Shown: one piece after another, positions 1,075 to 64,000 of the stretch | How the letters are laid out: the number at the start of each line of letters is the position of its first letter | How positions within the stretch are numbered: the first letter of the stretch is position 1 | From: Squalus acanthias | Taxonomy: Eukaryota | Direction of reading: 5' to 3' | Length of the DNA stretch: 64,000 nucleotides | Assembly (NCBI GenBank): GCA_030390025.1 | Contig: JASTWF010000093.1 | Location: 1,054,001 to 1,118,000, forward strand | The notes under the pieces: generated by a model | Told to the model about the DNA's origin: nothing | Databases searched by the model: none | Seen by the model: only the letters and a program-made list of their open reading frames with translations | Translations under genes and position numbers: made by a program

Positions 1075-2764
1075 TGTAAGGGTTTGCGAGCGTGTCTCTC
1101 CGCCTGTGAGATTCGCGTGGCTCTGTGCAGCCTGTATGTCAGTGCGGGTTTAGGCCTTGTTGCCTGTTCTGGTCTCCAGCCAGTCTGGGAACACTAGACA
1201 CACCTGTGAGTGGCTCGAACCACTCGCCCTTACGGTTCTAGACACTGGACTTAGATGCGAGAGCAGTAATGGAGATGAAACTCATGTAGACTCGTTTGAA
1301 TGGTACGAAATGGAAAATCTTTATTGCATGATATTTAAGATTACGAAATACATGTCATAAGCACAGATTAATGACAGTACAATCTTACACGCCGTTATGT
1401 AACTAATTCTAGGGAAACGAGGAACGAACGACACACCGTAAATGGGGGCACACATTACAATTATCCTTAGTACTTAAACCCTCCCCTATCAATATCTGTC
1501 CTAGCTAGATTCGTAGGATTCGAGACTCATGCTCACCACTCGTGATAACTCGGAGAAATTCCGAATAGCTGATCGGATGTTTTCACCGCAGCACCCACGT
1601 GTCGATCAGGGGGTCTCCTGGCCCCACTTGTTTACTTGCTTCTGCTCCGGCTAGCAGGCTGGAACGTCTGTTGTTATGAAGATCTGTGTTTGTGGGTTTC
1701 ACGTACCAGTCAACACTTAAGAGAATAATCTCTCGGTGTCCGTCATGAGGATCTGCCCTGATGGGTTTCACAGACCAGTCAATACCTCAAAGAAGAATCT
1801 TCCGGGGTCCGTTCTTTAAAGTTCAAAGAAGTCTTCCTGGCAAGGAAAAATGTCTATTCGACCTACAGGCGCGGTCGGGGCTTACTGACCGTGGCGATAA
1901 GTATGGTCTTCGTCTCTTCTCATCTCATCTCATCTCTTCTCGGGCCTTTGGTTCCGATGCCGGTTACCAACACAGGTCTTCGTGACACGACACGAGGTAG
2001 ATCAGAACGGATCACAAAGTTCAACAGTCTTTTAAAAGAGACACCAGGCAAACAGGAACAAGACGGCGAGTCAAGAACACAGGAGCAGCCACGAGGATGA
2101 ACACCAGCAAGATAAGAGGATAAGAGCATAAGAGAGAGATGGACGGTTGGAGCTTGTAATTATAGTACAAAATCTTCCGTTTCCCGCCCAACCTTAATGT
2201 CTTTTCTTTTGTTAGGGTTTGGCGCTCAAATGTCTTGTATAGGTGATCTCCGTTTTTAATGGGTTTCGGGGCTACTCGTAAATGTCTGAGTACCTGTTAA
2301 TATTTCTCCTATTGTTTAATCGGTCGGTAGTCTCCCTGGAGGGGTTTTGGGGCCTCCAAGTGTTTTCTGTAACTACCCGCTAACGGCTCTCTCATCGTAG
2401 AGTCGTTGGGATTTTACATATTAATGTCTTTGGATGGGTTCTTGATTACTGGGTACAATAGCCTTTATTCGTACCTGGGAGACCGATTCCAGTATCTATG
2501 TGTATACTGCAAACCCAAGATGTCTCGTGTATTATCTTCGATGTGCTGAATCTTAATCGATCTTGCACAAATGTTTATTGGAACGCCATCTTGTCTGCCT
2601 GTCGAAAAGTCTAGAATGTTCCGCCACGAGGTGCGGCGGCCATTTTACAAGCTGCTTGTGTCCACTTTGAAACCTGACAGCATTCTGCTGAAATAAAAGC
2701 TGTTTGAACGAAACTATGTGTTTTCTCCTTATTAATAAAATCGCGATATATTGCGAATTCTACA
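1075..2764 (-). mobile_element. Solo LTR, 1.69 kb
   Basis: TGTAAG...TTCTACA termini; 4-bp TSD CAGT (1071-1074, 2765-2768); empty site in paralog at about 26680-26695; AATAAA on - near 1320 suggests minus orientation. Confidence 0.85.
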
Positions 2765-33427: not shown

Positions 33428-33718
33428 GTGGTGTTTACTGATCATGTTGCTGCAGTTACTTTTTTTGATGTCCATTTTGTGAGGTGAGGGAACAAAACTT
33501 TTTCTATTTCAATAGATCACAGAAAATATCAACCCAGGAAATATCAACCCTTCTGGAGAAGAGAAAATACAGCTGTGGGGATAATTACTACTTAGTGCTT
33601 TCCTGTGTTCAAGATTAAATCTCGTATTAATCATCCTTTTAAAGTAAAATATTCTGAAGAGTCAAGATTAAATCTCTTGGAACAATGCTGTTACTAATCT
33701 ATTTGTTTGAATTCACAG

Positions 33719-34069
33719 CTCAGTTTCAAGTCCACACCCCAGAAGCACCAGTGACTGCTGTCTACGGCCAGTACACGGTGCTGAGTTGCAGCTTTACAGC
33801 TCAGGGTGAATCGTCACTGTATCTGCTGTTCATCAGTTGGCACCGTGTCGAGACGGAGGAAGTTGTTTATAGTTATTATGGAAAAGAGCAACTGAGTCGC
33901 CAAAGCCCTCGGTATTCGGGGAGGACAAGCTTATTCCCAGAGGAATTAAAACAAGGGAACGTTTTGGTGAAGCTGGACAGAGTGAGACCAGAGGATGCTG
34001 GACAGTACCTGTGCTTAGTCAGGAACGCAAAAAGAAATGGCCAGGGCATTGTGTCTCTAATATTTGCAG
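33719..34069 (+). CDS. Intact IgV exon (B7-type)
   Basis: AQFQVHTPEAPVTAVYGQYTVLSCSF...ISWHR...YSGRTSLFPEELKQGN...DAGQYLCLV...SLIFA. Confidence 0.92.
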
Positions 34070-34134
34070 GTACATGCTTCTTTCAGTTTTCATTTTTGTT
34101 CTGTCAGTGCTGCAAATTAAAGTCATGCTTCTTG

Positions 34135-60217: not shown

Positions 60218-60599
60218 TTCTCTCGTGATGCTTAACCACATGGCATTTGCCCACTATTTACAAATGTTACTGCATTTCCCTCAGAATCACCAACACCACC
60301 CCCCTCCAATCCCCATCCATCCTCCATAAAATACTTGCAATCCCGGCTCCCAGTGGGGATTTGTGCCTCGCAGGGAGTGAGGGTCAGAGGATTGGGGCTA
60401 CAGTGCAACAGCTCAAATCCCCAACCTCTGCTCCCTTCCAGCGTGGCGTTCCTCCAGGAGCACAGAATCTGCTATTTACACAAGGCAAAGGACATTCTGC
60501 ATGTTTATGCCGATGCCACCTTAACAAATGTGATTACATTCAGGAAGCTTTTTAATGCTCTTTCTTTCACTTCTAATAATTCACTCACAATAAAGACAT

Positions 60600-61738
60600 T
60601 TTTCAAGGCATTCACCCAGCCGCTGGTGGGTGGGGAATTTCAGAAATCCCCACCGAACAAAGCAGAGGAGGTATTTGCCACTGTGCCCTCCGCGCCACCC
60701 AGCTATTCGGCAACCTGGGTAAGGAAGGAAGTGGTAGAAGTAGAGGAAGAGCCCCCTGAGGTAGAAGTGAAGCCGGGACCGTTGTGTCCGGTCACGGGTA
60801 TCAAGAGGGGCCCGAACGGAGCAGGTGGGGCAGAGGGGGATCTCCTCAACCAGCTTGTGTTGCCTCACAGCTCACACCAGCTGAGGGCTATGATCAGTCA
60901 CGTACGGAAGCTGGCCGAGTCAGACGACCCTTCCGTACATTTCAGGGAGGTAGAGCAAACCGCAGCCATTAACGGCTGCGACGATGGGGAAAAAGCAAAA
61001 ATGCTGTTGTTCTCATTAGACAGCTCGATCCTTCAGTGTCTCTCAGACGAGAGCAAGAGGGGAAATAATACCTATGGGGAATTGAGGGACGAGGTCCTGG
61101 AAGTGTTGGGAGCGGACGATGAAGGTCCGTTCGTTAGATTGGGACAAACAGTGCAGATGGAGGGAGAACCCCCGAAGGTTTTCGCCGACAGGCTGTGGCC
61201 AGTATATCAACGTAGCTGCCCAGGCGCGCCAGCGCATCACCGCCTAGACAGTGTCGGTTTAACTCATTGGCTCAGGTGTGTAGTAACCAACAGTTTGCCA
61301 GCCGTCAGGGAGCAGGCCAAAGCGTGGTTTGATCCCACTAACCCCGCCACAACAGAGGAGTCGGTCCTAAATCGACTCACGGTAGGGTACCATAATACCA
61401 GGAGTGCGGGAGCACGTCCCCTTAAGGGAAAGGTGCATGAGGCGCGGCCCACAGCCCCGGCTCAAAAGGAGTGGCATCAGGAGGGAAATCGCGTCCCACA
61501 GGCCAGTAATGCTTGTTTCGGATGCGGAAAGACAGGGCACTGGCGCAAGAACTGCAGGAATCCTTGGAAGGAGTCCAGGGATAAAAATCCCACAGTCCGA
61601 GCCCAGGCGCCTGTCTCTGATAGGGAAGCTGGTGCACCTATCCATCCCGATGCGATAGAATCAATGTTGGGAGCCATGCGGTCTCTTATGATTTCGCACG
61701 GAAAGGTAGCAACAGCCCCGTCCGCCGGTACCCAATGA
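60600..61738 (+). CDS. gag: 5'-truncated Gag (capsid-like region + CCHC nucleocapsid) of an LTR retroelement/ERV
   Basis: PSAPPSY late-domain-like motif, DPSVHFREVEQTAAINGCDDGEKAKMLLFSL, QMEGEPPKVFADRL (MHR-like), CFGCGKTGHWRKNC; the first about 90 codons of ORF 60335 are host DNA. Confidence 0.85.
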
Positions 61739-63127
61739 CTGGAACCGGTGCAGCCTGCCTACCTGTGTCCTTTTAAAAGACACGCACAGGAGGGGGTCTC
61801 CTGTAAGGAGGCCAGGTTAAAAGAGCAGGCATTGCGGGAGGAGAACGCCCGTTTAATGGGAAAAATAGACGTGCTAGAAGGGCAGCTTAGAGAGATAAAA
61901 GCAGCCTACAGGGTAGCCAAAAGCAGGGAGAATGAGGATTTAAATCAGTGCAAACTGTATAAGCCGGGTGCACAAGGGCCAACCACAGGGGCCAAACCTG
62001 CGAGTGGGGACTCGCAGCCCCAGGTAGGGCCTCAGGGCACACAGGCAGGCAAAGCAGCTTGCATCAGGGGAGAGGACATCCTAGCAAAATGTAGGATCCT
62101 TTATTTGGGTTGGGAGTCAGATGAGGAAGAGTTCGAGGAGCTCAACGAAGATAGTGACACAAGCGAAGAGGAGCTGGAATCGGAGGACGAAAGGGTCGCC
62201 CCCGATTCAGGTATAGGGGAGACAGGGGCTGCAGATAGAGATCCACACAGGGTGGAGGCCGAAGCTGCATGTCCCGAACGCAGGGGGGCGGAGCTAGGGG
62301 AGGCGGAGCCAGCCGCTGTGGTGGGACCACAGGGCGTGGCGATGGAAGCCTCAGAGCCCGAGCCACCCGCCTTGAACGTCTTGCCCTCGAGGGAGGTAGG
62401 GACTGCGAGCAAAGGGCCGCCTACTGGGCCAAGTAGGGCGGTGCCACAAGCTGCAGATCCCGAGTTCAGGGAGGCGGAGTCAGGGGAGGCGGAGCCAGCG
62501 ACTGTGGTGGGACCACAGGTCGCCACGGTGGAAGTCTCGGAACCCGGTCCGTCAGTCCTGGAGTTCCTGCCCCCGGTAGTTCCCCGTAGGTCAGGTCGGA
62601 CACCCCAGCCCAGGAAGGCGTGGTCAAGTCCCCCGTACGCCCCAGGCGTAAGTTCAAGGTCAAGGCAGCCCAGGGAGAGCCCAGTCACAGCGCAGCAGCA
62701 ACAGGCTGTGGCAGATCAAAGGGAGGGGTCAATGCCCTCCCACCGTTGGGAGAAGCCTGCGGCAGCAACCGCAGAATTTGGGTGGAGAAGGATCGGGGAG
62801 GAGCATCGTGTGGGGTGTGGGGAAGGATCGGGGAGGAGCATCGTGTGGGGTGGGGGGAAGGATCGGGGAGGAGCATCGTGTGGGGTGGGGAAGGATCGGG
62901 GAGGAGCATCGTGTGGGGTGTGGGGAAGGATCGGTGTGGAGCATCGTGTGGGGTGGGGGGAAGGATCGGTGCGGAGCATCGTGTTGGGTGGGGGGAAGGA
63001 TCGGGGAGGAGCATCGTGTGGGGTGGGCGGTGGGGCACTGGAAGGATTGGAGTACACGTGCACCAATTGGAGTCATCGGGGGTGTGGATTGGGTGTGTGG
63101 GTTGGAGGCCATGTGGGGGGGACTTGA
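61739..63127 (+). CDS. In-frame post-gag ORF: coiled coil, acidic tract, Pro/Glu-rich internal repeat
   Basis: Same frame as gag after a single TGA; no PR/RT/IN motifs; C-terminus extended by a minisatellite. Confidence 0.5.
   Translation: MEPVQPAYLCPFKRHAQEGVSCKEARLKEQALREENARLMGKIDVLEGQLREIKAAYRVAKSRENEDLNQCKLYKPGAQGPTTGAKPASGDSQPQVGPQGTQAGKAACIRGEDILAKCRILYLGWESDEEEFEELNEDSDTSEEELESEDERVAPDSGIGETGAADRDPHRVEAEAACPERRGAELGEAEPAAVVGPQGVAMEASEPEPPALNVLPSREVGTASKGPPTGPSRAVPQAADPEFREAESGEAEPATVVGPQVATVEVSEPGPSVLEFLPPVVPRRSGRTPQPRKAWSSPPYAPGVSSRSRQPRESPVTAQQQQAVADQREGSMPSHRWEKPAAATAEFGWRRIGEEHRVGCGEGSGRSIVWGGGKDRGGASCGVGKDRGGASCGVWGRIGVEHRVGWGEGSVRSIVLGGGKDRGGASCGVGGGALEGLEYTCTNWSHRGCGLGVWVGGHVGGT
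62787..63027 (+). repeat. G-rich minisatellite, 7 x 33-35 bp
   Basis: (GAAGGATCGGGGAGGAGCATCGTGTGGGGTGKGGG)n. Confidence 0.95.
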
Positions 63128-63499
63128 AGGTCTCCGGGTTTGCTCGGGGGTGGAATTGGGGATCTCAGGGTGTGTTTGGAGGTCTCGGGATGGGATTGGA
63201 TTCACTCAATTCATTCACCTGGGAACGGGCGGCACTGTACAGTTATAAGATAAGTGATGAGTTTATAAGTTTATAAGTTTAAGTTCATAGTTTTAAATCA
63301 GGTTAAGTTTGTAGTTTAATTTTTTTAACAGAAAATGGTAAAATGATGGGAGTTAGAAATAGGAATAGTTAAAGTCTATCCAGTGCACATGTCTTCTTAC
63401 GTGAGGCGAGGTCAGGGGACCCGCTCACCCTTCACAAAAGCCAGAGACTCTTGGGAGGCTGGCTACCTCATTCTATCTGATCACAGGAACCAAGGAAGG

Positions 63500-64000
63500 A
63501 TGGAACGAATTCTAGTATTGCTCGTGGCAATCGGATGTGGATTGGCCTATCAAGGCCGCACCAAGGATGTCGTGGTGTTTGGATGCTCCGGGGACACGGC
63601 CCCCATCGCGGTGGATGGGACCGGAAGGCGAGAGGCTGAGGAGACCACCACCTATTTCCACAAGGGAAGGTGGCCAGGATGTCTGGGAACGAATTCCACT
63701 GAGTATTCCAGTACATCGGGTTTTGCCTACAAAGAGACTTCTTTAATGTGCCCCAAAGTGAGGATCATCGCACCCAGAGTCAGCGTCACCGTCGGCAAAC
63801 GGATTTGTTTGACTTGTAATGGGAATGTCCCATTGAGCCGATGGTGGTGGCTGCGAAAGCTGAGCAAAAACATGAGGAACTCTTCGGTCGAGTGGGAGCG
63901 ACTGGGTAATAACACCCATCGGACAATTACGGGGACAAACGGACAAGTGAGAGTCTGTTGGGACAAATGGTGGGAACCGGATGAGGGAATTTATGTATGT
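63500..64000 (+). CDS. Signal peptide + Ig-like domain glycoprotein, intronless, open to window end (env-position ORF)
   Basis: AGGATGG Kozak context; MERILVLLVAIGCGLA...VSVTVGKRICLTC...RWWWLRK...DEGIYVC; 167 codons without a stop; three NxS/T sequons; acceptor-like CTCATTCTATCTGATCACAG ending 63486. Confidence 0.8.
   Translation, partial: MERILVLLVAIGCGLAYQGRTKDVVVFGCSGDTAPIAVDGTGRREAEETTTYFHKGRWPGCLGTNSTEYSSTSGFAYKETSLMCPKVRIIAPRVSVTVGKRICLTCNGNVPLSRWWWLRKLSKNMRNSSVEWERLGNNTHRTITGTNGQVRVCWDKWWEPDEGIYVC

Follow-up and report, generated by a model that had tools for sequence, protein, structure and literature searches.

A young endogenous retrovirus of Squalus acanthias whose envelope protein is predicted to combine an F-type fusion core with an Ig-like N-terminal head

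What kind of gene is an intronless reading frame with immunoglobulin (Ig) hallmarks that lies behind a gag fragment in shark DNA? The window analyzed here, the whole stretch of 64,000 nucleotides from Squalus acanthias, ends inside such a frame. It opens at ATG 63500 in a strong Kozak context (AGG-ATG-G) and stays open for 167 codons to the window edge, with a translation identical to that quoted in a first-pass annotation made from the DNA letters; the ORF track had missed it because the frame runs off the window edge. The features on which that annotation relied are present, including three N-glycosylation sequons in the window part (residues 65, 127 and 137), the V/I-set hallmarks (B-strand Cys, C-strand Trp and D-x-G-x-Y-x-C) and an acceptor-like AG at 63485-63486, separated from the ATG by 13 nt. 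Two alternatives had been proposed, namely an env gene with an Ig-fold surface part or a stand-alone accessory gene or decoy captured from the Ig superfamily (IgSF). The ORF is the env of an endogenous retrovirus, as in the first alternative. The second fails because the Ig domain belongs to a single Env frame of 762 amino acids at this locus and 783 in the common form. Our main reading, to which we assign a probability of about 0.6, is that the env of a young, high-copy cartilaginous-fish retrovirus encodes a predicted paramyxovirus-F-type fusion protein, and that its added, predicted Ig-like N-terminal domain is likely the cell-attachment head.

The identity of the gene follows from its copies. 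A DNA search of the genome gave 2574 first-look candidates, of which 40 were scored (99-100% identical) and 39 of those 40 were examined; the copies were chosen by likeness to the window env, which biases them to young and intact ones. All 39 have the gag or pol of the element upstream of env on the same strand: 18 of them retain RNase H-integrase, 15 have gag and lack pol enzymes, and six are segmental duplicates of the window copy. The 783-codon env is kept in 16. The putative signal peptide and Ig motif of the window part might suggest a gene of the host IgSF, or an accessory gene captured on its own; either is hardly credible against one frame that unites a furin site, an F core and a transmembrane (TM) helix behind gag/pol in 39 of 39 copies.

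The order of the provirus is LTR-PBS-gag-TGA-pol-env-PPT-LTR. Both LTRs were mapped in 9 of the 14 copies read with wide flanks, and perfect 4-bp target-site duplications (TSDs) flank 8 of these 9. Proviruses measure 12.5-12.7 kb in five pol-bearing copies with both LTRs and 9.2-10.3 kb without pol. The primer-binding site (PBS) lies 5 nt past the LTR and is complementary to the 3' end of a genomic tRNA-Arg(TCG). Gag has 601 amino acids with a coiled coil and a single CCHC knuckle and ends in TGA, with pol following in frame, so that the stop would presumably be passed by readthrough; in one copy the first in-frame gag ATG overlaps the primer-binding site (L031:2962-2979, minus strand), and gag may in fact begin at a later Met. 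Pol is organized as PR-RT-tether-RNase H-IN-SH3 with a dual RNase H. Of six pol-bearing copies read over their whole length, not one has all three frames open. The divergence between the LTRs of the nine two-LTR copies is 0.12-1.85%, corresponding to ages of ~0.3-4 My at a yearly rate of 2.2e-9 substitutions per site or 3-42 My at 2.2e-10, both borrowed rates from which the true rate may differ; they are used in the available text of PMC7947760 and PMC4422223. The retroviral LTRs (TG..CA), TSDs, PBS and PPT are found in other copies, and the window copy lacks the 5' LTR and PBS. The element is thus a young, high-copy endogenous retrovirus (Retroviridae) of cartilaginous fish. The pol-less subfamily (15 of 39 copies; for example L017, L022-24 and L027-30) carries a gag-like coiled-coil fragment where pol would be; since the copies read with flanks have LTRs and TSDs, this subfamily was likely mobilized in trans.

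The window holds a damaged copy on the plus strand. The gag upstream of env claimed by the first-pass annotation is there, with the qualification that only its 3' two-thirds remain (codons ~221-601, 60616..61738), covering the capsid region and the CCHC knuckle (zf-CCHC) and ending in TGA. A tblastn search with full gag matched residues 221-587 only, and similarity between the window copy and other copies begins at 60616, leaving no 5' LTR, primer site or first ~220 gag codons. About 10 codons of the start of pol follow the gag stop in frame (61739..61770), with frame and sequence as in pol-bearing copies. A 170-nt gag-like coiled-coil fragment, which aligns as a gap against a pol-bearing copy (61771..61940; 41% identity to gag residues 145-181, E 1e-5), then takes the place of ~3.6 kb of pol, so that PR, RT, RNase H and IN are missing; no pol enzyme match was found within the 64-kb window. 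The acidic, Pro-rich C-terminal tail of pol (61941..62783) is 97% identical to the corresponding end of pol in a pol-bearing copy, and a G-rich tandem-repeat insertion (62784..63217) is shared with the segmental duplicates and absent from the independent copies compared. The candidate env splice acceptor (63460..63486) keeps its AG in 39 of 39 young copies, and another candidate, whose T tract is longer, ends at 63331. Codons 1-167 of env occupy 63500..64000, beginning with a putative signal peptide read from the sequence (residues 1-17, 63500..63550) and including most of the predicted Ig-like domain (residues ~80-185, 63737..64000), which extends ~55 nt past the window edge. Reading beyond 64000, as had been proposed as a check, recovered the furin site, fusion core, TM helix, PPT and 3' LTR: the frame runs on at L011:4001-5788 and is followed by the PPT (L011:6259-6270) and a 1625-bp 3' LTR with TG...CA ends (L011:6271-7895). 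This env has 762 codons and stops 21 codons before the common 783-codon form. The window copy is therefore defective, with no 5' LTR, a deleted pol and a shortened env.

Env would be translated from spliced RNA. Contigs of four runs presumed to be RNA cover all 30 bins of one pol-less copy, and no joint at either env acceptor occurs among the rows shown for them. Four database models (P0005, P0006, P0075 and P0102) join env pieces to Niban-1, CDHR5, a zinc-finger gene and an F-box; such fusions stem either from faulty annotation or from chimeric splicing.

The truncated provirus and its host flanks (window ~60230-64000; L013-L016, L110) exist as six segmental duplicates with 98-99% identity, which suggests that the window copy multiplied passively along with host sequence. 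Host co-option of the env at this locus, as a restriction factor or fusogen kept in a duplicated B7-like gene cluster, could draw on these six duplicates without a 5' LTR, three of which keep the 783-aa frame. We consider it very improbable, because the other three, the window copy included, stop early, the singleton N/S ratio of the duplicates (0.53, 23/13) is not below the 0.42 of independent copies, and the duplicates are merely 1-2% apart. Other features were seen nearby. Long, apparently intronless Maestro/MROH HEAT-repeat frames lie directly after the 3' LTR (L011:7865-9738, minus strand; HEAT_Maestro E 3e-59) and were duplicated jointly with the provirus, with an inverted related stretch in L012. 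At window positions 1117-2764 (minus strand) sits an LTR from a related subfamily, with 79-83% identity to that of the element.

What does the Env frame encode? At the window locus it is an intronless frame of 762 codons in the genome, in which the head is followed by a Pro/Thr linker, a core from residue ~236 and a furin site RQRR at 327-330. After RQRR come a Gly/Ala-rich, fusion-peptide-like stretch, long helices with heptads, a Cys-rich beta region and a single C-terminal TM helix (residues ~734-752). AlphaFold2 modelling of full Env from a 33-row alignment gave a mean pLDDT of 54: residues 236-760 are mostly resolved (pLDDT mostly 60-88 outside 308-392), and values fall below 50 for the head (5-235) and for 308-392. 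Foldseek placed the core with hPIV3 F (5e-11) and then RSV F (5e-10), and the best 39 listed of 242 matches at E<=0.001 were all paramyxovirus or pneumovirus F proteins. Among predicted viral structures (BFVD), it matched lispivirus glycoproteins, baculovirus F and walleye epsilonretrovirus Envs (1.5e-10 and 1.2e-7); F-type matches there also include a fish thamnovirus glycoprotein, an abalone herpesvirus protein and ranid herpesvirus ORF72. No PDB entry matched Env by sequence, and a whole-Env Atlas search gave an unnamed match (0.83). Homologues with a named source belong to skate, sawshark, further sharks and a single frog, in keeping with a cartilaginous-fish host. The modelling strongly supports a fold like that of paramyxovirus and pneumovirus F for residues ~236-760. 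Env has no CX6CC motif and no match to the retroviral TM Pfam family. With the F-type fold, the missing CX6CC points to an F-type (class Ib) rather than a gamma-type Env; a gamma-type Env is rejected on these three grounds. The predicted features of class Ib are all found, namely the F fold, the furin site ahead of a fusion peptide, heptads and a C-terminal TM.

The Ig fold of the head, which the first-pass annotation had read from motifs, came out of the same structural check more faintly than the core. For residues 80-188, AF2 gives a low-confidence sandwich of seven strands (pLDDT 56, pTM 0.49); a fold was assigned to neither residues 18-79 nor residues 186-235. No Foldseek match reached E<=0.001; the best had E 2e-3, and the listed matches seem to be antibody V domains, judged by chain and length. 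VIA ranked a phage domain first (Z 5.9) and chagasin third, with TREM-1 at Z 5.8 (rmsd 3.2, 92 aligned) and VEGFR-2 at Z 5.4; all Z are below 6, and IgSF domains stand level with non-IgSF sandwiches. Pfam Ig_3 matched the window part below cut-off (E 0.057) and likewise all 17 aligned family members, again below cut-off (best E 3.6e-4), and 9 of the 10 best Atlas matches that carry a family label fall in the Ig clan (0.88-0.90). Across the 17 aligned rows, the head has five invariant Cys and seven invariant Trp; the extra Cys of the RIC and RVC motifs, already pointed out as a pair, are invariant in 17 of 17, and four sequons lie within residues 65-213. Faint one by one but in agreement, these signals make a divergent Ig-like fold of residues ~80-185 probable.

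No donor emerged for this head among the 50 matches listed from 1.84 billion proteins. One profile search (A3) gave a single nanobody match, aligned to the wrong region, and no donor; another (A2) was swamped by the zinc-finger prefix of one row. A host B7-like IgV exon lies at 33718-34071 of the window (plus strand; V-set E 6e-11) and is unrelated to the Env head. The lack of visible resemblance noted at first sight was borne out (HMM E 0.48, hhalign probability 0.9%), and local capture from this neighbour is rejected, as neither method gave a signal.

Selection on the head is purifying. A dN/dS comparison, also proposed at the outset, gave 0.08-0.13 for the Ig domain in between-subfamily pairs with finite dS, dS between env subfamilies being near or at saturation. 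Among 33 independent copies, env variants common to more than one comprise 32 N and 72 S, a ratio of 0.13, compared with 0.42 for singletons; a lower ratio in shared variants than in singletons is the pattern expected of spread by reinfection. The shared-variant ratio is 0.11 in the head and 0.12 in the F core, which are thus equally conserved, and the head gives no sign of the fast change expected for an exposed receptor-binding head.

To which retroviral lineage does the element belong? Its RT was placed with fast SH-aLRT trees and a 21-row UFBoot tree, all without ERV-L or class II rows; L071, L075 and P0048 were dropped as too short. The nearest pols are 'NYNRIN-like' models of frogs and coelacanth (43-45% identical). 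The RT groups with foamy, L130 and gamma/epsilon-like rows (92.6/97), apart from Loki-motif and gypsy rows; the retroviral grouping reaches 98.6 in the SH-aLRT tree, and in the 21-row tree the element forms an early branch together with frog and coelacanth rows (95.7/72). Rows bearing Loki motifs stand apart as a clade of their own (99.9/100), and in the accessible part of the Wang and Han supplement the Loki RT motifs occur 35 and 46 times and the motif of the element 0 times. A first reading of the element as a lokiretrovirus was accordingly rejected by RT motifs and trees, and Spumaretrovirinae were rejected because the RT lies outside the foamy clade (100/100) and pol is in frame with gag. 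Foamy-like endogenous elements do occur in the same genome (L078-L082), with 49 spumavirus-protease matches and a best PDB match to foamy Pol (E 2e-146). Monophyly of the RT with L130, a 10,688-nt record that we take as snakehead retrovirus (SnRV) and whose RT reads like the SnRV row, has an SH-aLRT of 23 for it and 97/73 against it in the 21-row tree, and pol scores to L130, Astyanax pol and P0130 are level (322, 318 and 312 bits). By its sequence, the RT is that of an early-branching retrovirus, neither lokiretroviral nor foamy, near SnRV, with which it may or may not form a clade.

Related envelopes place the head in context. Other env families in the same genome have the F core in common (23-37% identity) and differ in their upstream parts, which usually end in a Pro/Thr run. 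Some heads are Ig-like by motif (L064, L070-72 and Chiloscyllium P0079), others are long and Cys-rich (L065-67) or short (L069, L075 and L083), further types exist, and three Envs have no head (P0100, P0116 and P0117). 'Ig-like' for these other heads means motifs judged by eye, a UniRef name (P0079) or a V-set match at E 0.045 (P0101); no Pfam Ig family matched any of eight other genomic heads. With the Ig profile, the head of the frog Env scored 7.1 bits, where the best of 1000 shuffles reached 5.8, and the other 19 heads scored below 4 bits; hhalign between Env families returned F-core matches only, with no head homology. The F-core tree pairs a headless Env with one that has a weak V-set head as sisters (99/100), unites long-headed and short-headed Envs in one clade (100/100), and gives the window Env a nearest group (91/91) whose heads are not Ig-like by eye. 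Two of the loci with F-type env and non-Ig heads, L065 and L069, have pols that group weakly (SH-aLRT 76) with gamma/epsilon-like retroviruses; env and pol histories differ there.

How might such an Env work? Furin would cut it at RQRR, the head would stay tethered to the F2-like piece by the Pro/Thr linker, and the cleaved trimer, judging from the predicted core, would most likely fuse membranes as F does. The tethered head would then bind a surface receptor and so replace a separate attachment protein (H/HN/G), and the family would have spread by reinfection. The same Env could instead carry an immune modulator or decoy for a host IgSF receptor of B7/CD28, TREM or SIRP type, with entry served by another part. 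The best cellular fold matches do include the immune receptors TREM-1, NKp44 and FcmR, although their Z-scores are level with those of titin, VEGFR and phage domains. The headless relatives, together with four Loki Envs seen, imply that entry is possible without a head, and the head is conserved rather than variable; no host donor was found, however, and heads in that position differ between sister lineages, which is what exchange of attachment modules would produce. A decoy head is therefore unlikely in our view, while still the most serious competitor.

Less probable again is that the N-terminal extension is a structural cap, a prefusion-trimer stabilizer or glycan shield made of an Ig-like sandwich of viral origin and binding no ligand. 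The invariant Cys and Trp, the four sequons, the strong purifying selection and the absence of a host homologue would suit such a cap, whereas the flexible Pro/Thr linker and the exchange of heads suit an independent binding module better. Conservation of the head would also suit a decoy or a structural role. The reading of an attachment head on an F-type core remains the one we prefer.

A wider scenario can be drawn only tentatively, at somewhat less than even odds. Within sharks, coelacanth and frogs, a retroviral lineage that branched early and is neither loki nor foamy may have kept a minimal F-type Env that was repeatedly given interchangeable N-terminal attachment heads, several of them host Ig domains; the ancestral retroviral Env would then have been F-type, in common with lokiretroviruses, and later replaced by the orthoretroviral Env. 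What suggests an F-type ancestor is that SnRV Env has the F core too, as do Envs paired with gamma/epsilon-proximal pols. Did loki- and canonical retroviruses acquire env in one event or in two? The text available of PMC7947760 left this open among four scenarios, and Wang and Han, in what is accessible of PMC9040795, preferred two gains. One F-type ancestor is favored by the pairing of an F-type Env with a pol that is neither Loki nor foamy, and by the match of an SnRV-like record to the F core; single versus double gain is now testable by an Env tree. In addition, the family illustrates how a bare fusion protein may acquire its own attachment module, a step proposed for foamy Env and the coronavirus spike, and one genome with so many young, related insertions (2574 first-look candidates) offers natural variation for study.

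F-like retroviral Envs, Ig receptor-binding domains (RBDs) on Env and SnRV-like endogenous retroviruses (ERVs) in sharks have each been published singly. We found no description of an Ig head on an F-type retroviral Env in the literature, where subscription papers, bioRxiv supplements or Repbase may hold one. The Env of this element is not described in the accessible portions of PMC9040795, PMC12690878, PMC12583693, PMC12193657, PMC4977317, PMC11521997 and PMC12440569, nor in those of bioRxiv 2023.10.26.564294, 2023.10.17.562709 and 2021.11.23.469661. New here are a pol that is not Loki, heads that vary over the lineage, and an SnRV-like record that weakly has the same architecture.

Several known systems share parts of this design. 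Paramyxovirus and pneumovirus F has the fold predicted for Env residues ~236-760, at an identity of only 9-14%; it lacks an N-terminal head and relies on a separate protein for attachment (H, HN or G in paramyxoviruses). L130 resembles the element in having gag and pol in frame across a stop, in an Env of ~1100 aa (L130:6131-9532) that matches the F-core profile (E 1.6e-8; 19.5 bits, best shuffle 5.1), and in a weak N-terminal V-set match (E 0.076) with a YxCMW motif. Its RT is only 42% identical, however, and the Ig profile built on the head of the element gives no match to its Env. SnRV also shares the Arg primer site and the Gag coiled coil, whereas its env starts upstream of gag; it has accessory ORFs, unlike the element. 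The element has the tRNA-Arg primer site and the gag-pol frame across a stop that mark the SnRV-like clade Huo. That clade is widespread according to the accessible text of PMC6001957, and SnRV-like ERVs appear in elephant shark as CmiERV lineage I in that of PMC4422223.

Lokiretroviruses, as far as PMC7947760 is available, resemble the element in gag-pol-env order, dual RNase H, an F-like Env and an RxKR-type site; for the Env core, we consider lokiretrovirus Env the closest known counterpart. The F core of four Loki Envs opens, by eye, with the same GP-x-x-G-[IL]-V/I-L as that of the element. In those Envs, however, the core directly follows the signal peptide with no ~220-aa head, the RT motifs differ from those of the element, whose RT lies outside the Loki-motif clade, and 0 of 6 chondrichthyan genomes contained Loki. 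Gamma-type Envs, in the accessible part of bioRxiv 2024.03.17.585361, carry swappable N-terminal IgV RBDs on a Pro-rich linker. The N-terminal IgV-like domain, the Pro-rich linker and the swapping among lineages are as in the element, but those Envs are class Ia with CXXC/CX6CC, and the SIRP case has a recognizable host donor, of which none was found for the head described here. Foamy Env, in what can be seen of PMC11468914, has a novel-fold RBD inserted before the furin site of its F scaffold because there is no separate attachment protein; the head of the element is N-terminal. Common to both is an F-type (class Ib) scaffold into which a receptor-binding module is built; in the element this would be the predicted head.
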